This document shows, piece by piece, positions 11,441 to 64,000 of a stretch of 64,000 nucleotides of DNA. Numbering within the stretch: position 1 is the first letter of the stretch; each line of letters starts with the position of its first letter. This DNA is from an uncultured delta proteobacterium. GTDB taxonomy: Bacteria; Myxococcota_A; Polyangia; Fen-1088. Under the pieces are notes generated by a model. That model had not been told where the DNA came from. It made no database searches and saw only the letters and a program-made list of their open reading frames with translations. The stretch lies in the NCBI GenBank assembly GCA_963737265.1, contig CAVTRY010000014.1, positions 390,714 through 454,713 of the forward strand, written 5' to 3'. Position numbers and translations under genes: made by a program.

Positions 11441-12252
11441 GCTGGATCCCTGGGTTCGGAGTCGACGATACGGGTGATGGCATCGCGCTCGACGAGTTTT
11501 CGCTTTCTGCGGGCGGCGTCGCGAAGGGCGGCGGTGGCGAGCCGGTCGAGGTCGCGCAAAGATCCGGCGGCGGCTTCGTGGAGCATGGCCAAGGCGTCGG
11601 CCGTGACAAGCTCGCGGTCGCAGCCTGATTGTTTGAGTCTGGAGCGAATGTAGTCGGCGGTGTCGTCCGGGGTCAGGGGCGCGACATTGAGCCGGGTGTA
11701 AATGCGCGAGTACAAGGATCGATTGCGACGGAGGACGAGCCTGTCGGAAAGTTCTGGCAGGCCGACGAGGACGAGGGACAGGAGCGCCCTACTGTCCCAC
11801 TGGTAGTTCAGCAAAATGTGCAGATGATCCAGCATGTCTTGGTGGAGCAGGTGGGCCTCATCCAAGAGGAAGACCGGGTGAACACGCTCGCGGCCAAGAT
11901 CTTCGACGTGGGAGGAGACGGCGAAGAAGAGAGCCGCGGCGGCGGCGGAAGGCGCGAGCCCCAAGGCGAGACAAAGCTGGCGATAGAAATCGCGGCGGCC
12001 GAGAGTGGCGTTGTGGCAGTAGGTCAGACGGAAACCAGTTTGCGGCAGCCTGTGGCGCAAGGCACGCAGGACGCAGGTTTTGCCGGCGCCGGGATCGCCA
12101 GTGAGGATAATGGACGCACGCTCATGGAGCGCCTCGCACAGCTCGTGTACCAGGGCCTCCTTGGAAGGCGGCATCCACAGGTCGACGTCGGCAATCTCCT
12201 TGGAGAAGGGGGCGCGTTCGAGGGCGAAGTGGCCGAGATAGGCAGGCGTCAT
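11437..12252 (-). CDS. ExeA-like AAA+ ATPase (copy 2)
   Basis: Identical to 7231-8046. Confidence 0.9.
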   Translation of the reverse strand: MTPAYLGHFALERAPFSKEIADVDLWMPPSKEALVHELCEALHERASIILTGDPGAGKTCVLRALRHRLPQTGFRLTYCHNATLGRRDFYRQLCLALGLAPSAAAAALFFAVSSHVEDLGRERVHPVFLLDEAHLLHQDMLDHLHILLNYQWDSRALLSLVLVGLPELSDRLVLRRNRSLYSRIYTRLNVAPLTPDDTADYIRSRLKQSGCDRELVTADALAMLHEAAAGSLRDLDRLATAALRDAARRKRKLVERDAITRIVDSEPRDPA

Positions 12253-13613
12253 CGGTCACCTCCTTGTGGCGAAGGGTTTCGGCCGACGGCTCGGTCGAGC
12301 AGCACGGAGGGCGGATCGAAGGGCACCGGTCGCGAGGCTTTTGTCGCATGTCCCCCGCCACGATTTGAGCGCTTTCGGCGGGCGTTCTTAGCAGGGTCGA
12401 CGGGATGAAGAGGCAGCGCCTTTCCCTCGTGCTCGACCCACGGAGCTTCGTTCATGTCGACGAGGCAACGGGCCACCATGACCAGTCGCCCTGCGAGGAA
12501 GCCCTGGTCAAGCTCCCAGTCCGTACCCTCCAGTGGCAGCGTGGTATCTCGGCGTACGCGGCGGCGCACGCGCACGGTCAGCGCCTCGCGCAGCTTGTGC
12601 TCGTCAAAGCGGTCGGTGGGACGTTCGGCTGCCTCGTACACGCGCGCGGGCGCGCGGCCGAGCAGCGACGCGTGCGGCGCCTTGTGGTAGTGCTCGTCGA
12701 GAAAGGCCCACAGTCGCACGTTGATGTCGTGTAACGACGACACCTGGCCAAGAAAGTCGAGACATCCCTGGCGCAGGGTGCGCCAGAAGCGCTCCATTTT
12801 TCCACGTGCCTGCGGGTCGTAGGGACGCGCGTGCAACAGGGAGACGCCCATGCGCGCACAAGCCGTGGACAAGATGTCGCCGCGATAGGTGCTGCCGTTG
12901 TCGAGGTACAAGGCATCGGGTGGCCCATGCCTGCGCAGGGCGCGCACAAACATGCCGAGCATATCCACCTCGCGCTCGGTGTGGTGCGCTTCCAGCGCGA
13001 TGATGAAGCGAGAGGCATCGTCGAGAAGTCCGTGAATTCGCACCGGCATGTTTTTGCCGTCGACCGAAATCGCCGGGCCGTAACAGACATCACCGTGCCA
13101 GAGCGCCCCAGGCCGCTCGGCTTCCCAGCGCAGCCTGGTCTTCGGCCCCTTGCTATCGCGCATGGGAATGCGGTCCAGTCCCTCGTCGGCGAAAAGCCGC
13201 CGCACCGTCGAGGCCGACACCGCGTCCTTGCTCAATCGTCCGTCGAGGGTCAGGGTGCGAAGGATCAAGGGCACCGAAGCCGAGGGGTGCTCGCGCCGGA
13301 TGTCGCACAGAAGCGTGCGCTGCTCCGCTGTCAGCTCCTGCGCGCGTCCACTATCGCTGCGTGGTTCGGGGCGCAGGGCATCTAGGCTTCCAGCTTTGTA
13401 GGCGTAGTACCAACGCTCCAGCGTCGGAATGGAGAATCTGCGCGTGCTGTCCGCTCCCGGCGGCCGGTAGCGCTCGGCGGCCAGATCTTTCAGCGTCGCC
13501 GCCAACTCTCCGTGGTCGAGATCTCGCCGGGTGAGTGCGCCGACGATCTCGCTGCGAAAGATGGCTACCTCCTCGGCATGGTCCTTGGGCTTCAGGCTTT
13601 GTAGGTCGGTCAT
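12249..13613 (-). CDS. DDE transposase (copy 2)
   Basis: Identical to 5870-7234. Confidence 0.9.
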   Translation of the reverse strand: MTDLQSLKPKDHAEEVAIFRSEIVGALTRRDLDHGELAATLKDLAAERYRPPGADSTRRFSIPTLERWYYAYKAGSLDALRPEPRSDSGRAQELTAEQRTLLCDIRREHPSASVPLILRTLTLDGRLSKDAVSASTVRRLFADEGLDRIPMRDSKGPKTRLRWEAERPGALWHGDVCYGPAISVDGKNMPVRIHGLLDDASRFIIALEAHHTEREVDMLGMFVRALRRHGPPDALYLDNGSTYRGDILSTACARMGVSLLHARPYDPQARGKMERFWRTLRQGCLDFLGQVSSLHDINVRLWAFLDEHYHKAPHASLLGRAPARVYEAAERPTDRFDEHKLREALTVRVRRRVRRDTTLPLEGTDWELDQGFLAGRLVMVARCLVDMNEAPWVEHEGKALPLHPVDPAKNARRKRSNRGGGHATKASRPVPFDPPSVLLDRAVGRNPSPQGGDR

Positions 13614-13730
13614 GGTGTCCCTTCTGCAATCGCGGTGTGCGATGCAGGTAAAGCCATGCTTCATTCCGGCCACGCCTGGCAGGGATCTTCGCGGGTGGGC
13701 GAAGTCCCAGCGACGGGAAAAGTCTGATGG

Positions 13731-14597: not shown

Positions 14598-15204
14598 CCA
14601 ATCTGCCTTACGATGCCTGGTACGAATTCCTGGGCAACAAGAAGATGGTCGAGGCGCTCCTCGACCGTCTTCGCCAACGCTGCCACACCATCATCATCGA
14701 GGGCCCTTCGCTGCGCAGCCCCGCAGCCTCGGCAACGCCGTGAAAACCCGACCTCCCATTCGCGTCATCGCGATCCAGATCCCAGCCCTCTCCACTCACG
14801 AGGCGGAGGCACTCATCGACTTTCTCGGGCAGATCCAGGGCGCACTCTGGGACACCTACGGTGCCGCCATCGTCGAGCGCATCACCGAGGCATCTCCGCC
14901 TGTCGCTGACCACCCCAGCAGTCCCTCCGACCCCAGCGACGACAGCACGCCCTTCTGATTCGCCCGTGTCCGGACACCTGCTGCGACGGCGCTCACGCCT
15001 TGGGCCGGCTGGGGCCTCTGCCATGTGGGCTCTCGGCTGGGGAACGCTGTCTTGGTACCCCGGCCCTCCTGGCCTTGCGGCTTCACCGCAGGTGCCACAG
15101 CTCCTGAATCCACATCCTGATTCAGATCGAGCACCACGATCCGTGATCTAAGCCCGGGTCAATTTCAATGAGCGTCGCTGGGTCAATTTCGATGAGCGGC
15201 GAAG
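14598..15204 (+). mobile_element. Right-end remnant of an IS21-like element related to the ParB-IS21 at 23031
   Basis: istB C-terminus TNLPYDAWYEFLGNKKMVEALLDRL (14598-14743), small ORF, and tandem GGGTCAATTTCRATGAGCG terminal repeats. Confidence 0.75.
14740..14958 (+). CDS. Small accessory protein (ALWDTYGAAI core, DDSTPF tail)
   Basis: GTGA overlap with the istB stop; homologous to 26635-26847. Confidence 0.7.
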   Translation: MKTRPPIRVIAIQIPALSTHEAEALIDFLGQIQGALWDTYGAAIVERITEASPPVADHPSSPSDPSDDSTPF

Positions 15205-15350: not shown

Positions 15351-15390
15351 CCTTGCCAAGGTGGACGTCGAGGGTTCAAGTCCACCGCTC
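15351..15390 (+). other. 3' fragment of tRNA-Gly(GCC), probable att-site scar
   Basis: CCTTGCCAAGG anticodon arm and GGTTCAAGTCC T-loop; 5' half absent, acceptor stem damaged. Confidence 0.65.
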
Positions 15391-15558
15391 AGAAGTGTCT
15401 TGAATTATTGCTTTTTCTGGCATTGCCGGCGGTGCCTGGCCAAGCCGACGACTATTCACGCTCGACGAGTTTCCGGGTCGTCGCGAGTCAACTCCGATCT
15501 TCTTAGTTGGGGGATCGCCACGAGGGAGTCTATAATGTCCCTTAAAGGACACACAAAG

Positions 15559-15852
15559 ATGAATCTCATCGCCATCAAGGATCTCAAGCAACCGCGTCGC
15601 TTGAAGGAACGCTTGTCGAACGAGAAGGAACTTCTGCTCACCAGCGATGGCAAACCGGTGGCTGTCTTGGTCAATGTGGGCCCCTTGGACGACCCCGAGG
15701 TGGTCATTCAGGCCGTGCGCGATTCGCGCAGCCGGCTGGCGCTGGCTCGTGTGCGTGATTCGGCGCGGAAAGCCGGGACGAATACGATGAGCATGCGGGA
15801 CATCGAGCGGGAGATTGCAACCGCGCGCCGAGAGCGTGGGATACAGCGATGA
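15559..15852 (+). CDS. Phd/YefM-like antitoxin
   Basis: MNLIAIKDLK...LLLTSDGKPVAVLV; overlaps the PIN gene. Confidence 0.8.
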   Translation: MNLIAIKDLKQPRRLKERLSNEKELLLTSDGKPVAVLVNVGPLDDPEVVIQAVRDSRSRLALARVRDSARKAGTNTMSMRDIEREIATARRERGIQR

Positions 15853-16262
15853 TTCGGGCTGTGTTCGACACCAACGTCGTGGTGTCGGGCTTTCTTTCAC
15901 CGTCAGGTCCGCCCGGCCGAATCGTAGATTGGCTACGAGCAGGCTCTGTCATCGCGGTCGTTGATGAACGAATTCTTGGGGAATATGCCGAGGTTTTGGT
16001 CCGCCCAACCTTTGGGCTGCGACCAGCGGACGTGGACGAGGTGCTCGCCGCGATTCAATCTCGGGTGACATGGGTGGAGGTGGGGCCCGACGACATGGTG
16101 AAACTCCCTGATCCCGATGATGCCGCCTTCGCGGAGTGCGCTCTGGTCGAAAGAGTTCCTCTCGTGACAGGGAACTTGCGCCATTTCCCGAAGCAAGCCT
16201 GTCATGGTCTGCGAATCATGACGCCAGCCGAGTTCGTGCGGTTTGCTGGGGGCGCTCAATGA
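15849..16262 (+). CDS. PIN-domain (VapC-like) toxin
   Basis: AVFDTNVVVS, PDPDDAAFAECA, LVTGNLRHFP. Confidence 0.9.
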   Translation: MIRAVFDTNVVVSGFLSPSGPPGRIVDWLRAGSVIAVVDERILGEYAEVLVRPTFGLRPADVDEVLAAIQSRVTWVEVGPDDMVKLPDPDDAAFAECALVERVPLVTGNLRHFPKQACHGLRIMTPAEFVRFAGGAQ

Positions 16263-20420: not shown

Positions 20421-21916
20421 GATGCCACCTGTTCGAGGAGCAGGTCGTAGGACGCGAGATCGACCAGCGGTGCTTCGAGCGCGGGGACGCTCGGTGGATA
20501 GGTACTGTCCGTCGCCTGTGTGCATCTCTTCTTGGTTGCATCCGCCGTCAAGATGGTCCCATCGGCAAGCAGAGTCGTGAGCGCTTGCTCGACATCGGCT
20601 TCCATCGTGCTGGCGGCCAGGTGAAGAATGCGCAGGTATTCAACGTCGCCTTTGATTCCAGGCTTGGTCGCCTGGATCGCGTCGTATGCCCGCCTGAAAG
20701 TCACGCTTGGAAACAGCTCTTCTCGGTAGACGTAGCGAGAAAACGCGCCCGGCTTGCGCACCAAAGACCAGATGACGTGCCGGTAGTCGATGCGCGCGGT
20801 CTTGCCTCGCAGCCTGTCGCAGGCCAATTCCAAGTTGTCGGCGTAGTACACCTCGATTCGGTGCTCGAACACGCGGACTCTCACCCGTGCGCCGATCAGC
20901 CTCGACGGCACCGAGTAGGCGCACGACTTGACCCGGATGGTGCTCGTCGACGCCACAGGTGCCGTCATTTCTGCGTACTCCGGCAAACGCTCCACCACCA
21001 GCGGCCGCATGGCTTCGATCTCCTCGGCGACGCGCGGGCCTCGCGAAGCGTTGGCTTTGCGGACCACCTTGGCTACGAAGCGTTCGTAGTCGTCTTGGTC
21101 CGCGAAGTCGCGGCTGCCACGCACCAGCAACGCTTGTTCAAGCCGACGCTTGAGCGCGCCGTTGCTGGCCTCCACATCGCCGTTTTGTTCCTTGGCCCCG
21201 ACGGCTGTAGTTCGTGGCTCCATTCCGAGGTGCCGCATGACCGCCTTGTATTCATCGTTGAAAGTGCGATCTTCCGCATCGCGAGCGATCTGATGTGTCG
21301 CCGCCGTCGAGTGGTCGGTTTGGTGGTATCGCGGCACCCGCCCAAGCTGGAACAGCGCCGACTGGATCCCTCGCCGAAGCGCTGCCAGAGACTCCGACAG
21401 ACACGCGGTCGCCCATTGCCAGTTCGAGTACGGCAGCACCGTCACGCACAAAAGGTGCACAAATAGCTGGCCCACGATCGTCACACCAAGCTCCGCCGTC
21501 GACGTGAAGTCGGTTTGCGCGGCTTCACCGGGCCGATGCGCCTGCGTGAACCAAATCTCACGCGCAGGACCATGCTCGGCCCGCCAGCGACGGATTCGCC
21601 GCTGCATTGTCCGAAGATGGCTCTCGTTGTACCGCCCTGGCTGCTTCGCCTCCAGCAGCTCCAGCACCGTCTGAGCCTCCAGCCCAGGCGTTTCCTCCAG
21701 CAACTTGGCCACGGCTGGCCAGTCCTCGGCGAACGCGTCAGGGCGCGTCCGCCACCACCGCGGCTGCCGTAGCTCCGACGGTAGCTTGCCCGCGGCGATG
21801 TATCGCCGCCCTGTCTTCCGGTCCATGCCCGCCTTCATGGCGGCCTGGCCTACTTTTCCAATCTTGCTCATCTCTTCCATCAAACGCCTCACTTGGGCGT
21901 CGGTGACCGGCTTCAA
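20417..21916 (-). CDS. istA: IS21 transposase IstA
   Basis: Identical protein to 1100-2599. Confidence 0.95.
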   Translation of the reverse strand: MKPVTDAQVRRLMEEMSKIGKVGQAAMKAGMDRKTGRRYIAAGKLPSELRQPRWWRTRPDAFAEDWPAVAKLLEETPGLEAQTVLELLEAKQPGRYNESHLRTMQRRIRRWRAEHGPAREIWFTQAHRPGEAAQTDFTSTAELGVTIVGQLFVHLLCVTVLPYSNWQWATACLSESLAALRRGIQSALFQLGRVPRYHQTDHSTAATHQIARDAEDRTFNDEYKAVMRHLGMEPRTTAVGAKEQNGDVEASNGALKRRLEQALLVRGSRDFADQDDYERFVAKVVRKANASRGPRVAEEIEAMRPLVVERLPEYAEMTAPVASTSTIRVKSCAYSVPSRLIGARVRVRVFEHRIEVYYADNLELACDRLRGKTARIDYRHVIWSLVRKPGAFSRYVYREELFPSVTFRRAYDAIQATKPGIKGDVEYLRILHLAASTMEADVEQALTTLLADGTILTADATKKRCTQATDSTYPPSVPALEAPLVDLASYDLLLEQVAS

Positions 21917-22742
21917 AGGTGCCTCCTGCCCGCTTGCGGGCTTGGAGGTCTACCTCACGGTCACCGTCGCGCCTCAAAGCGGGGCGACGTAGCTGTCGTC
22001 TTTGGGGAGATGTAATTGTCGCTCAGCATGCGTAGGGCGGTCACCATCAGAGCGGCTCTCTTTGGATGGACCACGTGAACATGCCGGACCAGGAATTCAC
22101 CCGCATCCTGGGGCCCGAGCGCATTGAGGTGCACCTTCCTGCCATCGAACCGCTCCGCGAGGAACGAGCGGACAATGGGCAGGTAGCTGATCCGAGTCGA
22201 GACGGACAGGCCACGGTCTACCAACAGATACCGGCCGAATTCGCTCACGATCCGCCCGATCGCAGTGTCATCGACCTTAGTTGGGGCTGGCGGGGCCAGG
22301 CCGGCAGAACGGACCTGTTCAAGTAGAACACGCAGTGTCGCCGCGTCCCCACGCCGGGGCGAGCAAGGATGGCCCTGGACGAAGCGGACTACGACTTGCT
22401 CGTCGACCTCACCGATAGCGAGTCCTCGCCGTCCAAGCCACTGTCCGAATTTCGCTGCCACGCGCACCTTCAGCGCCACGGTGGCGGGCGAATATCCCTT
22501 CTCGGTGAGCGTCGCCGCAAACGTGTCCAGGTGCGGACCCAAGGGGCCGCTACGCAGTCGTTGCCATTCCACAAAGTCGTCGTGCATCCGGGGCATGTGT
22601 CCTCCTTCGGCCCAGTAGCCAGAAAGAGACGACGACGCCCTGGTTATGCCGAGTCTGCAAGCCCATCTGCCGAAGGAATCTCCGATGATCGAGCGAGATC
22701 GAAAGACTCACTCGGCATAACCGGGCACTCGGCATAATGCCT

Positions 22743-22900
22743 CAGCCGATGGGTGCAGAGCCGCTCCGACAGCGGCAGATCGCCGCCGATCTTGGTCAGA
22801 GTCGATTGGTAGGTGGTCGTGGCAATCGGTCGACCGCGTGCGCCCTGGACCAGGTAGGGATGGTCCTGGCGGGCCCGACGTTGCAGCTCGGTCACTGCCG
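22743..22900 (-). pseudogene. Middle fragment of the RIT-interrupted integrase
   Basis: ...LPLSERLCTHRLRH abuts the RIT end. Confidence 0.75.
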
Positions 22901-22904
22901 CCAG

Positions 22905-23030
22905 AGCGGCGTTCTCGAAGGGGTCGAAACCCGCGGACTCTCACGTTGCACGGTCGAAGCCTACGCGCATGACTTGGCCCTGGTGCACCGATGGCTTTTC
23001 GCCTCGGGACAAAAACTCGCGGAGCTTCCG
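22905..23030 (+). pseudogene. Integrase N-terminal (SAM-like) fragment
   Basis: ETRGLSRCTVEAYAHDLALVHRWL. Confidence 0.6.
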
Positions 23031-23132
23031 CTGAGGCGCTTTTGAGGAAGAGTCCGGGTCTGCTCTGCAGAAGTAGTCCACCCTCGACCTGATCGGTGGT
23101 GGCAGCGGAGGTGGCGAGGCGGGCGGGTTCCG

Positions 23133-23579
23133 GTGAGCGTGGCCGCGATGTGCACGCGGCTCAAGAAACGGCCATGCCGGATTTGTGGGAAGTGGTTCTG
23201 GCCTGACCCACGGGTCGGGCAGCGACAGCGGACGTGCACGGCGAAGGAATGCCAGTGCAAGCGCCGGGCGTGGACGCAGGCAGCGTGGCGTGGTGCGAAC
23301 CCGGAGTACGCCATCGCGTACCGGCTGCAAAAGCGGGCAGCGGCGCCGGAAAGGGAGCGCTCGGAAGCGCGTCATCCACCGCCCTTGGATCGACTGCCCT
23401 GGGACCTGGCGAAAGACGAGTTCAAGGCGCAAGGCCGCGATTTTCTTGAGGTATTGGCGCGAGTCCTCCTGGCTGGCATGAAAGACGAGATGCGAGCCCA
23501 AGTAGCCGTAATCACGCATGAATTCCGAGGACACCCCCCTTTGGTACCGAAAGACCAGACCGGGACTGCGGCAGTGTAG
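23133..23579 (+). CDS. Zn-finger protein
   Basis: CRICGKWFWPDPRVGQRQRTCTAKEC. Confidence 0.7.
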   Translation: MSVAAMCTRLKKRPCRICGKWFWPDPRVGQRQRTCTAKECQCKRRAWTQAAWRGANPEYAIAYRLQKRAAAPERERSEARHPPPLDRLPWDLAKDEFKAQGRDFLEVLARVLLAGMKDEMRAQVAVITHEFRGHPPLVPKDQTGTAAV

Positions 23580-23586
23580 CCGGGCG

Positions 23587-24504
23587 ATGGAGGTTGAATT
23601 TCAACATCTGGATTTGCGCTACGAGCGGCTGCGCAAGCACCACCCTGCGCGCGAGCGGCAGTTGCTCGGATCGCTGGCCGACCACGGGCAGCAGGTGCCT
23701 ATCGTGGTGGTGCGTGGCCCGGGCGAGATGCGTGTGGTGATCGATGGGTACAAGCGGGTGCGGGCGCTACAGCGGCTGGCGCGGGACACGGTGTGCGCGA
23801 CGGAATGGTCGGTGTCGGAGCCAGAGGCGCTGATCGTGGAGCGGGTGATGCGTGCCACGAGCGGCGAGGACGCGCTGGAGCAAGGCTGGCTTCTGCGCGA
23901 ACTGGTCGATCGATTTGGGCTCGGCCAGGAGGAGTTGAGCCGGCGCTTCGACAAGAGCAAGAGCTGGGTGAGCCGGCGGCTAGCGCTGGTCGCGGCTTTA
24001 CCGACGGCGATCCAGGACACCGTACGCCAGGGGAAACTGGCGGCACACGCTGCGATGAAGTACTTCGTGCCGTTGGCGCGCGCCAACGAAGAAGTGGCGG
24101 TGTCTCTGGCGGCAAAAGCGGCGACGCTGCGACTGAGCACGCGGCAGGTGGGCGCCTTGTACGTGGGCTATGTCTCTGGAAGCGCGCGAACACGCGAGCT
24201 GGTGTTGCAAGACCCGCGGATCTTTCTGCGCGTGCAACAGGAGGCACAGCAGAAGAAGGACGCGCCCCAGGGGCCGGTCAAGGAGATTGAAGGCGAATTG
24301 GGTGCGCTGGGCGGGATTGCCCGCCGACTGCACCGGAAGCTGCAACAGGGGCTGTGGCGCAATCTGGATCCCTGCGAGCACGAGGAAATCAGGTCGCATG
24401 TGCAGCGGGCGCGTGCGGATGTGCAGACGTGCCTGGCGAATTTCGACGAGGAGCAAAGTGATGCTGGACCAGAACACGCGAACGTCGATTCTCAAGCTTC
24501 GTGA
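23587..24504 (+). CDS. ParB/Spo0J-like protein
   Basis: SLADHGQQVPIVV...VIDGYKRVRA (ParB N-domain) plus HTH QEELSRRFDKSKSWVSRRL. Confidence 0.85.
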   Translation: MEVEFQHLDLRYERLRKHHPARERQLLGSLADHGQQVPIVVVRGPGEMRVVIDGYKRVRALQRLARDTVCATEWSVSEPEALIVERVMRATSGEDALEQGWLLRELVDRFGLGQEELSRRFDKSKSWVSRRLALVAALPTAIQDTVRQGKLAAHAAMKYFVPLARANEEVAVSLAAKAATLRLSTRQVGALYVGYVSGSARTRELVLQDPRIFLRVQQEAQQKKDAPQGPVKEIEGELGALGGIARRLHRKLQQGLWRNLDPCEHEEIRSHVQRARADVQTCLANFDEEQSDAGPEHANVDSQAS

Positions 24505-25891
24505 AAAGGGGCACGGCACGCGCAAGATCGCCCGTGCGCTCGGGGTCTCGCGAAAAGCGGTGTGCCGGGTGATCGAAAGTGGAGACGCGGCCGTGCCCAT
24601 GATCGAGCGACGAGAGCTGGCCGAGCCCTACCGGGAGCAAATTCTAGAACTGCACGCCGCATGCAAAGGACATCTGGGGCGGGTCCACGAGGAGCTGGTG
24701 AAACAGGGCGCGACCTTATCGTACCAGGCCCTGACGGGATTCTGCCGTCGCCACGGGATTGGGTACGAGGCGCCGTTGCCGGCTGGGCGCTACGAATTCG
24801 CACCTGGGGAAGAAATGCAGCACGACACTTCACCCCACCGGGCGAAGATGAAAGGCGTGCTGGTCGAAGTAGAGACGGCATCGCTGGTGCTGTGCTACTC
24901 GCGCATGCTGTATTTCCAGATGTATCCGCGCTTTCGGCGCTTCGAGTGCAAGGTCTTTCTGACCGACGCGCTCGGGTATTTTGGCGGCGCCGCCGGCCGG
25001 TGCATGATCGACAATACGCATGTGGTGGTGCTCAAGGGGACGGGCAAGACCATGGTGCCGGTGCCGGAGATGGTGGCTTTGGGCCAGCGCTTTGGCTTTG
25101 TCTTCGCGGCCCACGAGGTGGGTGATGCCAATCGCTCGGCCCGTGTCGAGGGGCCGTTCAACTGGATCGAAAACAATTTTCTCAACAACCGCGACTTCAA
25201 CGACTGGGAGCACCTGAACCGGGAAGCCACCGCCTGGTGTGACAAGGCCAACGCCACCCACAGCAGCAAGCTGCACGGAACCCGGCGCGAGCTCTTCGCG
25301 GTGGAGCAGCCTCGACTGCGACCGCTGCCCATCTTCGTCCCCGAGGTGTACCAGTTGCAGCACCGCTTTGTGGATGTGGAGGGCTACGTGCGCATCAACC
25401 GCATTCGCTACTCCGCCCCGTACCAGCTCATTGGCCGGCTTCTGGAAGTGCGCGAATTGAAAGATCGGGTCGATGTCTACGATGGCCCTCGGTTAGTGGC
25501 CACGCACCGTCGGGTCCACGGTCCCCTGGATATCCGCGTGACCGATCCGGCGCACCGGCCGGAACGAGGCAGGCTAAAACCCGCCGCGGGACCGCCACCC
25601 GAAGAAACCGCGATCCTTTCACGCGAGCCAAGGCTCTCCGCCTACGTGGCCGCATGCAAGCAACACGTCGGCGGCCGTGGTGTCCTGGTGTTGCGACGGC
25701 TGCTAGGCATGCTGCGCGAGTACCCGCGCGAGCCCTTGCTCGCGGCTGTCGAACGCGCCCAGCAGTACGGCCTCTATGACCTGGGCCGGCTCGAACGCCT
25801 GGTGCTCGAACAGATCCGGCGTGACTACTTCGTGATGGACGGCCTGTTGCCCGGTGAGAACGACGACGAGGAGAACGACGATGACCGATGA
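24461..25891 (+). CDS. istA: IstA-like transposase
   Basis: HTH TRKIARALGVSRKAV; PGEEMQHD, CMIDNT, ARVE, YSAP. Confidence 0.9.
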   Translation: MLDQNTRTSILKLREKGHGTRKIARALGVSRKAVCRVIESGDAAVPMIERRELAEPYREQILELHAACKGHLGRVHEELVKQGATLSYQALTGFCRRHGIGYEAPLPAGRYEFAPGEEMQHDTSPHRAKMKGVLVEVETASLVLCYSRMLYFQMYPRFRRFECKVFLTDALGYFGGAAGRCMIDNTHVVVLKGTGKTMVPVPEMVALGQRFGFVFAAHEVGDANRSARVEGPFNWIENNFLNNRDFNDWEHLNREATAWCDKANATHSSKLHGTRRELFAVEQPRLRPLPIFVPEVYQLQHRFVDVEGYVRINRIRYSAPYQLIGRLLEVRELKDRVDVYDGPRLVATHRRVHGPLDIRVTDPAHRPERGRLKPAAGPPPEETAILSREPRLSAYVAACKQHVGGRGVLVLRRLLGMLREYPREPLLAAVERAQQYGLYDLGRLERLVLEQIRRDYFVMDGLLPGENDDEENDDDR

Positions 25892-26609
25892 CCTCGACCA
25901 ACTGCTCAAGCTGCTGCGCCTCAAGGGGATGTCCGAGATCCTCGACGAGGAAATGCGCAAGGCCGACAAAGAAAGCATGCCCTTTCGCAAGCTGCTGGCG
26001 CGTCTGCTGCGCGCCGAGTGGCAGCACCGGCAAGAGAGCGCGCTGGCCTGGAGGATCAAACACGCGGCCATGCCCGAGAAGTGGAGCATCGAGTCCTTCC
26101 CCTGGAAGAGCCAGCCTGGCGTCAACCAGCGGCAGATCCGCACCTTCGCTGACCTGGACTTCATCCCCAAGGCTGAAAACATCGTGCTCATTGGTCCGAC
26201 CGGCGTGGGTAAGACCGGGCTGGCGTGTGGTCTTCTGCTCAAGGCTCTGCACAATGGCCATCGCGGCGTCTTCGTGCGCGCGCAAGATCTCTTCGACGAG
26301 ATGTACGCATCCCTGGCCGACCGCTCGACGCGCAAGCTGCTCAAGTACCTGGCGCGCATTGATGTATTGCTGATTGATGAAATGGGCTATTTGAACGTGA
26401 AGCCCGAGCAAGCCAACATCTTCTTCAAGTTGATGGAAGAACGGTACCGTCGCTTTCCAACCATCATCACCACCAATCTTGATTACGACGATTGGTACAG
26501 CTTCCTGGGCAATAAGCCCCTGGTCGAAGCACTGCTCAGCCGCTTGCGCCACCAGTGCCACACGGTGAAGATCGACGGCCCCTCCCTGCGCACGCCGGCC
26601 GCCCCCTGA
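25881..26609 (+). CDS. istB: IstB ATPase
   Basis: GPTGVGKT, LIDEMGY, IITTNL. Confidence 0.9.
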   Translation: MTDDLDQLLKLLRLKGMSEILDEEMRKADKESMPFRKLLARLLRAEWQHRQESALAWRIKHAAMPEKWSIESFPWKSQPGVNQRQIRTFADLDFIPKAENIVLIGPTGVGKTGLACGLLLKALHNGHRGVFVRAQDLFDEMYASLADRSTRKLLKYLARIDVLLIDEMGYLNVKPEQANIFFKLMEERYRRFPTIITTNLDYDDWYSFLGNKPLVEALLSRLRHQCHTVKIDGPSLRTPAAP

Positions 26610-26634
26610 CCTCGATCCCGAGAGCACCGCAGCC

Positions 26635-26847
26635 ATGAGCCCCAGAACACTGCCGCACATCGTCTCCTTCGCCATCCCCGCCATCGAGCCACGCCAGGCC
26701 GAGGCACTCATGGACCTGCTCGGACAACTACAGGCCGCACTGTGGGATGCATACGGTGAAGCCATCCTCGCAACCGCGGACGACCCTCTCCAAGACATCG
26801 ACCAAGACGAGCCCACGTCAGATCCCGGCGACGCCTCGCCTTTCTGA
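26635..26847 (+). CDS. Small accessory protein (ALWDAYGEAI core, DASPF tail)
   Basis: Homologous to 14740-14958. Confidence 0.7.
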   Translation: MSPRTLPHIVSFAIPAIEPRQAEALMDLLGQLQAALWDAYGEAILATADDPLQDIDQDEPTSDPGDASPF

Positions 26848-27226
26848 CCCGCCCTTGTCCCGCCATCGCTTGGCTGGGTGACAACCGCTGGCCTCGCCAC
26901 GCGCCGTCGCTGCGTCCGTCTTTCACGTCCACGTGTCCATTCCCGGCCGCGATCGCAGTACCGATCTCTGTTTCGCCCAGGGCCTCTTTCTGCGGAACGA
27001 GACTGGCCTCCTCCTGCGGAGCGGCTCAGAGCTTCCGGTCAGCTACGCCAATTTTCCTCCCCAAAGACCTCAGCGATCCTGGCGATCCTTCCCTCAACCA
27101 AGGATGCCCAAAACGGCCATCGAGACCCCAATAGGCCACATAAATGTCAACTACATGGACCTACATGTCGAGCTGGTTAAGCTATCCCTATACCCGGCGG
27201 GGCACACCCGTGCCGAGAAAGATTTT

Positions 27227-27728
27227 CTCCTGGCCCGACTCCTGGCCGCCACCGCCGGAGCCTCCCCAGCCGGCCCCGCGCACAAGCGGGCGCCTGTGCG
27301 CATCGTGCTCGACCCCGACGCCACGCCCATGGCCAAGGGCAAGCTATGCGGCCAGCAACGCAGGGCAGTCGACTCCATCCCGAGCTGGTCGACGTGCCGT
27401 CAGTTCAGCCAGTCTTCGCCCTCGGGCCCCGCGCTCCGGGGTCCGATCCCAGGGTCGTGTGCCGCGCGGCGCGCGAGCGCCCGCGCGGCGCGCGAGCGCC
27501 ACGTTGGTCAGCGGTGCGGCGAGGTCACTGACGAGCCGTCGACAAGGGCGGCGGGATGGAGCAGACTGCCCTGCGTGGTAGAGAAAGCCCCATCAGGCCC
27601 CCAAAACCCGATTAAGCGCGCTGCGCCAACGCAATCGCGTCCGCGCTGATGCGGTCCAGCAGGGTTCTCAGACGCTCAGAAAAAACGCTTCGAAATGCCT
27701 ATGGGCACGCTTCGAAATGCCTATGGGC
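27227..27728 (+). mobile_element. Scrambled IS91-like remnant with a duplicated oriIS-like end
   Basis: LLARLLAATAGASPAGPAHKR fragment, an inverted 3' piece, then the terminal block. Confidence 0.75.
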
Positions 27729-41037: not shown

Positions 41038-44000
41038 ATGACAAAGCCCACCATCAGTTTGCAAGAACTTCGAGCGAAGATAGGCCAACGGGCGAAGTCC
41101 GCCCCTGCGCATCGCTTTTGGGGATTGCACGTCCACATCATGAAACTCGATACGCTCGAAGCGGCGTACTTGGAGGCCAAGCGCAATGGCGGAGCCCCTG
41201 GGTCCGACGACGAGACGTTCGAGTGCTGAGCGACAATTACATCTCCCCAAAGACGACAGCTACGTCGCCCCGCTTTGAGGCGCGACGGTGACCGTGAGGT
41301 AGACCTCCAAGCCCGCAAGCGGGCAGGAGGCACCTTTGAAGCCGGTCACCGACGCCCAAGTGAGGCGTTTGATGGAAGAGATGAGCAAGATTGGAAAAGT
41401 AGGCCAGGCCGCCATGAAGGCGGGCATGGACCGGAAGACAGGGCGGCGATACATCGCCGCGGGCAAGCTACCGTCGGAGCTACGGCAGCCGCGGTGGTGG
41501 CGGACGCGCCCTGACGCGTTCGCCGAGGACTGGCCAGCCGTGGCCAAGTTGCTGGAGGAAACGCCTGGGCTGGAGGCTCAGACGGTGCTGGAGCTGCTGG
41601 AGGCGAAGCAGCCAGGGCGGTACAACGAGAGCCATCTTCGGACAATGCAGCGGCGAATCCGTCGCTGGCGGGCCGAGCATGGTCCTGCGCGTGAGATTTG
41701 GTTCACGCAGGCGCATCGGCCCGGTGAAGCCGCGCAAACCGACTTCACGTCGACGGCGGAGCTTGGTGTGACGATCGTGGGCCAGCTATTTGTGCACCTT
41801 TTGTGCGTGACGGTGCTGCCGTACTCGAACTGGCAATGGGCGACCGCGTGTCTGTCGGAGTCTCTGGCAGCGCTTCGGCGAGGGATCCAGTCGGCGCTGT
41901 TCCAGCTTGGGCGGGTGCCGCGATACCACCAAACCGACCACTCGACGGCGGCGACACATCAGATCGCTCGCGATGCGGAAGATCGCACTTTCAACGATGA
42001 ATACAAGGCGGTCATGCGGCACCTCGGAATGGAGCCACGAACTACAGCCGTCGGGGCCAAGGAACAAAACGGCGATGTGGAGGCCAGCAACGGCGCGCTC
42101 AAGCGTCGGCTTGAACAAGCGTTGCTGGTGCGTGGCAGCCGCGACTTCGCGGACCAAGACGACTACGAACGCTTCGTAGCCAAGGTGGTCCGCAAAGCCA
42201 ACGCTTCGCGAGGCCCGCGCGTCGCCGAGGAGATCGAAGCCATGCGGCCGCTGGTGGTGGAGCGTTTGCCGGAGTACGCAGAAATGACGGCACCTGTGGC
42301 GTCGACGAGCACCATCCGGGTCAAGTCGTGCGCCTACTCGGTGCCGTCGAGGCTGATCGGCGCACGGGTGAGAGTCCGCGTGTTCGAGCACCGAATCGAG
42401 GTGTACTACGCCGACAACTTGGAATTGGCCTGCGACAGGCTGCGAGGCAAGACCGCGCGCATCGACTACCGGCACGTCATCTGGTCTTTGGTGCGCAAGC
42501 CGGGCGCGTTTTCTCGCTACGTCTACCGAGAAGAGCTGTTTCCAAGCGTGACTTTCAGGCGGGCATACGACGCGATCCAGGCGACCAAGCCTGGAATCAA
42601 AGGCGACGTTGAATACCTGCGCATTCTTCACCTGGCCGCCAGCACGATGGAAGCCGATGTTGAGCAAGCGCTCACGACTCTGCTTGCCGATGGGACCATC
42701 TTGACGGCGGATGCAACCAAGAAGAGATGCACACAGGCGACGGACAGTACCTATCCACCGAGCGTCCCCGCGCTCGAAGCACCGCTGGTCGATCTCGCGT
42801 CCTACGACCTGCTCCTCGAACAGGTGGCATCATGACCAACGTCTCCGTAGACACGGTCAAGCCGAGCGCGCTCGACGCTCTGCTGGTGCTTCTGCGCGCG
42901 CTCAAGCTGCCTGCCTTCACCCGGCACGCCGAGGAGATCGCGATCAAGGCCAGCCGCGAGGGGTGGACCTTCAGCCAATACCTCCAGCACCTGGCCGAAC
43001 TGGAAATCGAAGAGCGCCGAACCCGTCGCATCGATCGCGCGCTTCGCGATTCGGACCTTCCCACGGAGAAAACCCTGGCCACCCTGGAACGTGGTCGGCT
43101 GTCACCCAAGGTGATGAAGCAGATGGCGAGCCTGTGTGAGGGTGGCTTTGTCGAACGTGGGGAGAACCTGCTCGTCTTCGGACTGCCCGGCCGAGGCAAA
43201 AGTCACGTTGTGGCTGCCATCGGCCACGAACTCATCCGGCGCGGCTACCGGGTCCTCTTCACGCCGACCTTCGCGCTTGTCCAGAGGCTGCTGGCCGCCA
43301 AGCGCGACCTTCGCCTGGAACGAGAACTGGCCGCGCTCGACATCTATCACGCCGTGATCCTCGACGACATCGGCTACGTCCAGCAGAGCCGCGATGAAAT
43401 GGAGGTCCTTTTCACCTTCCTGGCCGAGCGGTACGAACGCAAGAGCGTCCTCATCACCAGCAACCTGGTCTTCAGCGATTGGATCCGCATTTTCAAGGAT
43501 CCCATGACCACCGCCGCCGCCATCGACCGACTGGTCCACCACGCGGTCATCCTTGAGATGACCGGCCCCAGCTACCGCAGCGAAGAAGCACGAAAGAGAG
43601 GCGTCACCACCCCAGCGACAACTACGACAACTACCGATCAACCAACGACAACTACCCCCGACAACAATGGGGCGATGTAATTGACGTCACCGGGTGAATG
43701 TAGTTGACGTCCAGCAGTTCGAGGCGATTGAGGCGCAGGGCCGAGGAGAGTTTCTCGCGAAACTCGCCGAGGAACTGCGCACGGACGCGTACCACCCGAG
43801 GCCGTATCGTCGGAGAGAGATTCCTAAGGAAGGCGGCAAAGTCGGCGTGATTTCGATTCCTGCGATTCGAGACCGCGTGGTGCAAGGCGCCCTCCGGCTT
43901 ATTGTGGAACCAATCTTCGAAGCCGACTTCTCGGACAGTTCGTATGGGGCGAGGCCGGGACGAAGCGCGCACGAGGCAATCGAGAAAGTGCGAGTGGGAC

Positions 44001-63571: not shown

Positions 63572-64000
63572 CGGCGTTTTCCTCGTTGTTGAAGGCGTCG
63601 GAACGTGGGTTGAAGCCGATATGTTCCAGCACCTTATCGGGGATCTTGTAGAACTCGATCCCTGCGCCTGTGTAGGGCGCAACGGACGCGTAAACGTGGT
63701 AACGGGACTTCAAACCATCGGCCTGTGCTTCGGCGACGATTTCCCTGAACACGTCGCGATTGAGGACAGACGGTTGATCCGCCGCCTGCCAGACGAGGAA
63801 GAATCCTTCGTCCTTTGAGTTCACGGCGAACAAGTATTTGTGCGTGCCGACAGGCAGACGGCGGAGATAAGAACGGGCGCGTTCGTTCTTGTCCCAATAG
63901 CTCGTCAGAAGGAGGTCGATCATCTCCTCGCGGGCGAGGGCATTGACGGCGTCGGCATCGATCTTCTCCCGGCGCAGTTCCATGAAGCGAAAGCCAGCTG
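63564..64000 (-). CDS. C-terminus of a probable type III Mod methyltransferase (partial)
   Basis: Overlaps the Res start; GFRFMEL..FYKIPD; catalytic motifs lie outside the window. Confidence 0.55.
   Translation of the reverse strand, partial: AGFRFMELRREKIDADAVNALAREEMIDLLLTSYWDKNERARSYLRRLPVGTHKYLFAVNSKDEGFFLVWQAADQPSVLNRDVFREIVAEAQADGLKSRYHVYASVAPYTGAGIEFYKIPDKVLEHIGFNPRSDAFNNEENAVA

Follow-up and report, generated by a model that had tools for sequence, protein, structure and literature searches.

An IS21-family branch carrying ParB-like and zinc-ribbon genes upstream of istA, and a possible regulatory role of the ParB-like protein in transposition

Insertion sequences of the IS21 family are treated as two-protein systems and serve as a current structural model for the control of a DDE transposase by an AAA+ ATPase. 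Canonical members are roughly 2–2.6 kb long, and the target-site duplication (TSD) that accompanies their insertion usually measures 4–8 bp. Passages of PMC10122671 describe the prototype IS5376 as having two repeats at each end, L1/L2 and R1/R2, and prototypical members as carrying a signature 3′ CA at their ends. Here we describe an IS21-family element located at positions 23031–27029 of a 64,000-nucleotide stretch of DNA (hereafter the window) from an uncultured delta proteobacterium (assembly GCA_963737265.1, contig CAVTRY010000014.1, positions 390,714 to 454,713 of the forward strand). The element carries, upstream of istA, a gene for a Cys4 zinc-ribbon protein and a gene for a ParB-like protein. 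Comparison with relatives from many bacterial phyla showed that both genes are part of the transposon lineage, and the features of the ParB-like protein are consistent with a DNA-binding role in the control of transposition.

A complete IS21-family element with five genes

The ends of the element were defined by the boundaries of its copies in the genome, neither chance repeats nor the terminal repeat itself being used to set them. When window positions 22800–27300 were searched against the window's own genome, matches extended only over positions 231/232–4230 of this query, corresponding to window 23030/23031–27029, and thereby delimited a sharp-ended unit of 3999 bp. The genome holds three copies: that of the window, a second one that is 100% identical (C12:31132-35131) and a third one that is found in two pieces on C11. 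Two of the three are flanked by TSDs. The window copy lies between two occurrences of the 8-bp sequence AGCTTCCG, at 23023–23030 on the left and 27030–27037 on the right, and the C12 copy is flanked by CCGGCGGG, also of 8 bp. The C11 copy (C11:1391970-1397406, loci L003/L004) has no TSD and has lost 1 nt within the left-end repeat L2. It is also broken in its last gene, orf70, by an insertion of about 1.4 kb that codes for an rve-type transposase, IS3-like by eye, with flank pieces that overlap by 3 nt. This copy is probably dead and may be rearranged. The genome thus contains three copies, of which two are identical and each have an 8-bp TSD of their own, and this shows that the window element is a complete member of the IS21 family that was active recently. 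A preliminary description of the window had proposed a 3999-bp unit with imperfect inverted repeats and an 8-bp TSD, and the copy boundaries and the AGCTTCCG flanks agree with it.

Five co-oriented open reading frames (ORFs), all on the + strand, fill the element. The first (23148–23579) encodes the zinc-ribbon protein of 143 aa, its start having been set by alignment with 27 homologues. The second (23587–24504) starts 7 nt past the zinc-ribbon stop codon and encodes the ParB-like protein of 305 aa; this start corresponds to M24 of a longer ORF and matches that of homologues of 305 aa. It overlaps by 41 nt the gene of the IstA transposase (24464–25891, 475 aa), which in turn overlaps by 11 nt the gene of the IstB AAA+ helper ATPase (25881–26609, with an alternative GTG start at 25854). 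IstB was recognized by PF01695 with 207.4 bits (cut-off 24.1) and by NF038214 with 224.6 bits (cut-off 200). IstA matched the Mu-transposase C-terminal domain PF22483 with 51.3 bits (cut-off 27) and, in its N-terminal part, HTH_23 with 24.9 bits (cut-off 24.6). The score of IstA with NF033546, 148.5 bits, was under the cut-off of 160, there was no match to Pfam rve, and its DDE residues were identified by eye only. The fifth gene, orf70 (26635–26847, 70 aa), belongs to no known family and is kept only in a sub-lineage: no match was found in 84 loci from other genomes, and homologues are located in a remnant within the window, described below, and after istB in a genome of the same genus (L115, 41% identity, E 2e-12). 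The short gaps and overlaps between neighbouring genes form a layout that would be compatible with translational coupling. A programmed frameshift fusion of the ParB-like protein to IstA was considered and rejected by eye, the overlap being variable in length among relatives and missing in some of them. Inspection of the ORF list and family scans revealed no ParA-type gene among the five ORFs. The tightly spaced set of zinc-finger, ParB-like, IstA, IstB and 70-aa genes that had initially been reported, with parB overlapping istA and parA missing, was therefore recovered in full.

Each end of the element contains two 18-bp repeats with a spacing of 24 bp, the outer one lying 7 nt from the tip. 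The left terminal inverted repeat (IR; 23031–23079, + strand) begins with the tip CTGAG and includes L1 (23038–23055) and L2 (23062–23079), and the right one (26981–27029, − strand) includes R2 (26981–26998) and R1 (27005–27022) and finishes with the tip CTCAG; both were delimited by the copy boundary and the repeats. By eye, the two ends are complementary at 18 of their first 25 positions, and this IR pair is not among the 25 longest repeats of an automated repeat search. Since the 18-bp pattern was built from the four end sites, their count is circular and only their symmetry is informative. A fifth match to the pattern, at 63900–63917, sits in apparently ordinary coding sequence and was treated as chance.

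About 15 relatives with a credible alignable IR showed the same two-repeat layout, with tips CTTCG, CTTGG or CTGAG followed twice by a repeat of the type GCTC....AGAA...GACCC, in elements of 3.7–4.9 kb. As judged from these alignments, the two-repeat ends match the IS21-type L1/L2–R1/R2 layout and the repeats represent putative IstA-binding units. Both in the window element and in its relatives the 3′ end is AG, so the IS21 signature 3′ CA (5′-TG...CA-3′) is lacking. Because the relatives with alignable IRs share it, the CT...AG tip characterizes the clade and does not reflect damage to the window copy; the earlier remark that the ends deviate from the canonical TG..CA thus extends to the relatives. 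The TSDs of relatives measured 8 bp (L093), 7 bp (L081), 9 bp (L022) and 5 bp (L039), and several loci had none. No target preference is evident, because the seven target duplications seen differ in sequence. As a separate observation, two loci located on two contigs of one metagenome-assembled genome (L030 and L084) carry AGCTGCT at opposite flanks, neither copy having a duplication of its own, an arrangement that would fit recombination between element copies.

Linkage of the ParB-like and zinc-ribbon genes to istA

The association between the accessory genes and the transposition genes was analysed in both directions. The IstA-anchored set comprised 80 loci on one-genome-per-species contigs, with IstA identities of 52–66%, and these loci were labelled Acidobacteriota, Myxococcota, Gemmatimonadota, Planctomycetota, Actinomycetota, Pseudomonadota and others. 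A ParB-like gene was present directly upstream of istA in 74 of the 80 loci, the remaining six having only 96–379 nt of upstream sequence, and IstB followed istA in 77. In the opposite direction, an alignment search with the ParB-like protein detected at least 438 stretches encoding relatives in the one-genome-per-species data. Eighty of the 438 were kept, about ten of the resulting loci lying on contigs shared with the IstA-anchored set, and istA was the next gene downstream in all but one of the 75 loci that had at least 600 nt of downstream sequence (74/75). The distances of the three proteins also co-varied. Mantel tests with 999 permutations on 41 rows, with at least 75% coverage of all three proteins and after dropping two duplicate-contig rows, gave r values of 0.835 for ParB-IstA, 0.828 for IstA-IstB and 0.662 for ParB-IstB (p = 0.001 for each pair). 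In addition, 61 of 69 loci had a ParB-like frame without interruption between the expected start and the region where istA begins; the frame is intact about as often as that of istA. Of the eight frames flagged, six differ only in length, five of them continuing deeper into istA and one ending 105 nt early, and the other two appear to be truncated.

Of the 54 loci whose upstream sequence was long enough, 51 have a Cys-rich basic ORF in the position preceding the ParB-like gene; as a base rate, 210 of 3721 six-frame ORFs pass this test. According to tblastn, 32 of the 54 are of the window type, and the others have different zinc-ribbon architectures that include two-module forms.

These results bear on the possibility that the ParB-like gene is a passenger, that is, a partition or host-directed gene that takes no part in transposition. 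ParB homologues usually serve partition, and mobile elements frequently carry orphan ParB-fold genes according to the portions of PMC12704722 that treat them. A gene of this kind is difficult to reconcile with a two-way synteny that is near-universal, with distances that co-vary with those of IstA and with a frame that stays intact; nor does it agree with the overlap with istA and the absence of a ParA gene from the element. Moreover, a search of 72,556 plasmid records gave no close homologue of the ParB-like protein, the best match having 38% identity over 46% of the protein. The passenger explanation is therefore close to refuted. The same plasmid records contained no close homologue of IstA: the nearest, which were ISRel3-like, had about 31% identity, and both loci inspected were without a ParB gene. 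All in all, neither the ParB-like nor the zinc-ribbon gene is cargo: both are obligate accessory genes that are co-inherited with the transposon. The preliminary description had treated them as integral to an IS21 lineage and had suggested that conserved synteny and congruent phylogenies be examined, noting that close IstA homologues mostly lacking parB would speak for a passenger gene; synteny and distances alike came out in favour of an integral pair, and the close IstA homologues mostly carry the ParB-like gene.

The ParB-like protein and its proposed role

The ParB-like protein comprises a ParB/Srx-type N domain with the motif DGYKR, a ParB helix-turn-helix (HTH) and a helical C-terminal domain. 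HTH_ParB (PF17762) matched it with 36.4 bits (cut-off 22.6), and its sequence matches in the PDB were Myxococcus xanthus ParB (MxParB), Noc and Spo0J. The KorB domain PF08535 was found with 24.6 bits (cut-off 22.3) in a deep relative (L100), and closer relatives scored 17.6–21.7 bits. An AlphaFold2 model built from 32 homologues had a mean pLDDT of 89.5. Foldseek searches with this model placed at the top Noc, M. xanthus ParB with CDP, Bacillus subtilis ParB with CDP, Caulobacter ParB and KorB, both alone and with KorA, with E values between 3e-10 and 1e-7 (2.8e-10 for Noc and 4.9e-10 for MxParB). The KorB-KorA complex 8qa9 had the highest TM-score among the matches listed, 0.38. Residues 195–295 form a helical domain with invariant G239, R246, R247 and G255, for which there was no fold match. 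The profile and fold matches agree with the initial identification of the protein as ParB-like, which was based on the GYKR N domain and the HTH.

Since the ParB/Srx fold includes enzymes, we considered whether the N domain could be a nuclease or another enzyme, for example one that makes a TnsA-like cut of the 5′ strand and converts replicative into cut-and-paste transposition. Every copy seen is a simple insertion flanked by TSDs, which would fit such an activity, but canonical IS21 also yields simple insertions. The DGYKR motif may resemble the DGxHR-type motifs of ParB-like nucleases. Sulfiredoxin (Srx), serine kinase and SbnI do appear among the fold matches, although far lower in rank; by far the best matches are to DNA-binding proteins, namely ParB, Noc and KorB, the HTH being intact, and family scans gave no match to a nuclease family. 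We consider an enzymatic function of this kind very improbable.

Residue equivalences were derived from a sequence alignment to MxParB and from a family alignment of 32 sequences. The MxParB residues G92, R94, R95, R97 and R130 correspond to G54, K56, R57, R59 and R89, all of them invariant in the family; E126 and N127 correspond to E85 and R86, which are nearly invariant, and E93 corresponds to Y55, a position with Tyr or Phe throughout. In terms of motifs, the GERR of MxParB reads GYKR here and its ENLQR reads ERxMR, Q52 of MxParB being outside the aligned stretch. As set out in passages of bioRxiv 10.1101/2021.05.05.442810, Q52 and E93 are the catalytic residues of MxParB, nucleotide binding is lost in the R95A and R130A proteins, and the R54A, R94A, E126A and N127A proteins bind nucleotide without closing the ring. 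Because the nucleotide-binding arginines are kept as R57 and R89, nucleotide binding by the ParB-like protein is plausible. Orphan ParB-fold proteins on mobile elements can bind CTP, ATP or GTP according to the part of a 2025 survey that deals with them (PMC12704722).

These conserved arginines, together with the ParB/Noc/KorB-like fold and the HTH, are also what would be seen in a true CTP-dependent sliding clamp that loads in the element, spreads and steers IstB, serving cis-immunity, target choice or end synapsis. The helical C-terminal domain with its invariant residues could dimerise, and the zinc-ribbon type of the first gene varies by sub-lineage, as a specificity factor might. Precedents exist in Mu and Tn7, which use their ATPases for immunity. 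IstB would be a suitable partner, being the AAA+ target-DNA selector of IS21 as stated in sections of PMC11208146. The residues required by a clamp are nevertheless replaced: Tyr or Phe stands in place of the catalytic E93, and Arg in place of N127, the residue whose change to Ala abolishes ring closure in MxParB. A parS-like site was found neither within the element nor among 15 spacers between istB and the element end, and the differing target duplications, with no target preference evident, do not suggest that insertion is aimed. We thus regard such a sliding clamp, which the preliminary description had inferred, as unlikely.

The partner gene offers fewer points of comparison. In the zinc-ribbon protein C10, C13, C30 and C35 are invariant in 28 sequences and lie within a very basic N-terminal part, after which come the conserved segment PLxxLPWDLAQ and then, towards the C terminus, a long helix. 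The protein had no match in Pfam, NCBIfam or PHROG and no Foldseek match at E ≤ 0.001, and its neighbours in a protein atlas were only unnamed clusters.

We propose that the ParB-like protein would bind the element's own DNA, probably with the basic zinc-ribbon protein as a partner, and would be a nucleotide-gated switch determining the moment at which IstA and IstB work. Bound nucleotide would stabilise the protein, and because the ParB residues for hydrolysis are missing, a long-lived bound state would be expected rather than a fast-cycling clamp. We favour a role similar to that of KorB, in which binding in or near the left end and the promoter would hold the operon and transpososome assembly in check. 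Three considerations point in this direction: the first genes of insertion sequence operons commonly encode end-binding regulators, as in the case of InsA of IS1 and OrfA of IS911; KorB-KorA is the best-fitting solved complex; and no target preference is visible. For these reasons a regulatory or licensing role is favoured over a role in target choice or immunity. As to the general proposition that the ParB-like protein regulates transposition as a DNA-binding, nucleotide-gated protein encoded by the element, we consider the chances to be about even. It is more doubtful that this IS21 branch recruited a ParB-fold switch and a zinc-ribbon partner as transposition proteins that, as a pair, mark the element in cis and direct IstB; if true, this would be the first ParB-type clamp or switch working in transposition.

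Several observations weigh against a regulator of this type. All the synteny evidence was obtained from loci picked by similarity to the window element. At E 0.01 neither Pfam ParB_N nor KorB matches the ParB-like protein, its TIGR00180 score of 46.6 bits stays under the cut-off of 58.45, and the Arg at the N127 position may mean that no clamp is formed at all. At 305 aa, and with an invariant N-domain motif, the protein exceeds the needs of a simple repressor. With respect to DNA sites, a search of the element found no promoter-like site, and neither the element nor the spacers between istB and the end in 15 elements yielded a conserved palindrome, a search that non-palindromic or diverged sites would escape. 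An AT-rich palindrome at the ParB-like start codon, GTTGAATTTCAAC, was evaluated as a parS candidate and rejected, as it is not kept in a relative that is 81% identical. Finally, no physical link of the ParB-like protein to the zinc-ribbon protein, IstA or IstB was found: ten longer homologues contain no zinc-ribbon or IstA fusion, and their extra segments look like low-complexity read-through.

Relatives, genomic surroundings and known systems

The branch to which the element belongs is large and widespread. A profile of the ParB-like protein, with a search space of 1.84 billion, retrieved representatives of 50%-identity clusters, 709 of them at E ≤ 1e-30 and 2600 at the looser threshold of E ≤ 1e-10. 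Named homologues are annotated as chromosome-partitioning ParB, and their longest contigs mostly measure 1–8 kb, as expected for repeats, which break assemblies. Among 40 related genomes, the ParB-like protein was detected at E ≤ 1e-25 in four: two of 12 from the same genus, one of 12 from other parts of the family and one of 16 from other parts of the class. This patchy presence fits a mobile element.

More distant lineages carry the same arrangement. A ParB-like gene with a DGFKR motif also precedes istA at L100 and L101, both in the window's own genome (C10 and C21), and at L116, in a genome of the same family (G021), where IstA is only 27–31% identical. L100 has a two-module zinc-ribbon gene and L101 has instead a non-Cys ORF of 125 aa; two further loci of the L101 type, L102 and L103, are 5′-truncated inside the ParB-like gene. 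In a quick IstA tree the window clade formed one starred group of 16, and the deeper ParB-linked lineages were placed on long unresolved branches among elements without ParB, row L103 being counted as without ParB owing to its 5′-truncated copy. On the basis of these sequences, the partnership between ParB and istA may be ancient or repeatedly acquired.

One further relative is preserved in the window itself as a 3′ remnant (14598–15204, + strand) that comprises the C terminus of IstB, an orf70 homologue and a right end. It retains approximately the 45 last IstB codons and the orf70 homologue, with 72% mean column identity and 65% identity over about 300 nt. In reverse complement its right end reads CTTCGCCGCTC...GAAATTGACCC, twice, with a CTTCG-type tip, and the remnant stops exactly at 15204. 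These features identify it as the trace of a diverged relative and not as a fourth copy, in line with the preliminary description, which had taken the segment as the sign of a family.

The remnant is adjoined by a 474-aa rve-type integrase/transposase with HTH_32 (12249–13673, − strand) that belongs to a transposon of a different family, and downstream, at 15361–16262 (+ strand), there are overlapping small ORFs of 163 and 137 aa that by eye only have the look of an antitoxin/PIN-type toxin pair. To the left of the element neighbourhood, a segment of 528 bp (21501–22028) is 100% identical to 988–1515 and 41224–41751, on the opposite strand, and looks like another multi-copy element. A phage-integrase SAM-like domain (PF02899, E 7e-7) forms the N-terminal part of a 211-aa ORF at 21961–22596 (− strand). 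The element itself lies in an ORF (22737–23030, + strand) for which neither side of the insertion gave a family match, and it probably landed in an already decayed mobile element. On the right flank, 27214–27707 is a patchwork of three short repeat modules, copies of which, 75–97% identical, occur near 38.2, 40.3, 50.1–51.1, 53.8–54.7 and 58.5–59.4 kb and elsewhere in the genome; a 35-bp piece of one such module lies directly against the C12 copy. The whole window looks like a mobile-element hotspot.

The ParB and zinc-ribbon branch of IS21 is apparently undescribed. A literature search of main texts, which did not extend to supplements or ISfinder, found no description of a ParB-fold gene in IS21 elements, the papers retrieved on such a link being only papers on plasmids in which the two terms occur independently; ParB is absent from the searched portions of PMC10122671 and PMC12486865. 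The main text of PMC12704722, as far as available, contains none of the terms 'transpos', 'IS21', 'IstB' and 'insertion sequence'; its supplements lay outside this search and may list a ParB-istA family. A branch that always adds ParB-fold and zinc-ribbon proteins to the two canonical ones constitutes a ready-made experiment on such switches outside the segregation of chromosomes and plasmids, and on the ways in which transposons regulate or aim themselves. In this context, the annotation of these genes as chromosome-partitioning ParB is misleading.

Compared with known transposons, the window element is closest to canonical IS21 elements (IS21, IS5376 and the ISRel3-like elements on rhizobial plasmids), with which it shares istA, an overlapping gene for the IstB AAA+ protein, two-repeat ends and a short TSD; it differs from them in having two genes upstream of istA, a length of about 4 kb and CT...AG tips in place of CA-3′. 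Transposons of the Mu (A/B), Tn7 (TnsABC with TnsD or TnsE) and Tn5053 (TniABQ) type likewise combine a DDE transposase and an AAA+ partner with DNA-binding proteins, possibly zinc fingers. To our knowledge none of these three uses a ParB-fold protein, in contrast with the window element, for which moreover no site-specific insertion was seen.

Compared with known ParB-fold proteins, the window protein shares with the ParB, Noc and Spo0J clamps (M. xanthus ParB, 7BNK) the ParB/Srx fold, the HTH, the GxxR box and the nucleotide arginines. It departs from them in having neither a ParA partner nor a recognisable parS, in the replacement of the catalytic Glu and of the ring-closure Asn, and in a C-terminal domain that is unmatched. 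The orphan ParB-CTPase-fold proteins of mobile elements, as covered in parts of PMC12704722, are similarly without ParA and of uncertain nucleotide specificity. KorB and its clamp-locking partner KorA of plasmid RK2, described in sections of PMC11790492 (structure 8QA9), also consist of a ParB-fold regulator that acts outside partition and a small DNA-binding partner, with the differences that the putative partner of the window protein is a zinc-ribbon and not an HTH protein, and that the context is a transposon and not a plasmid.

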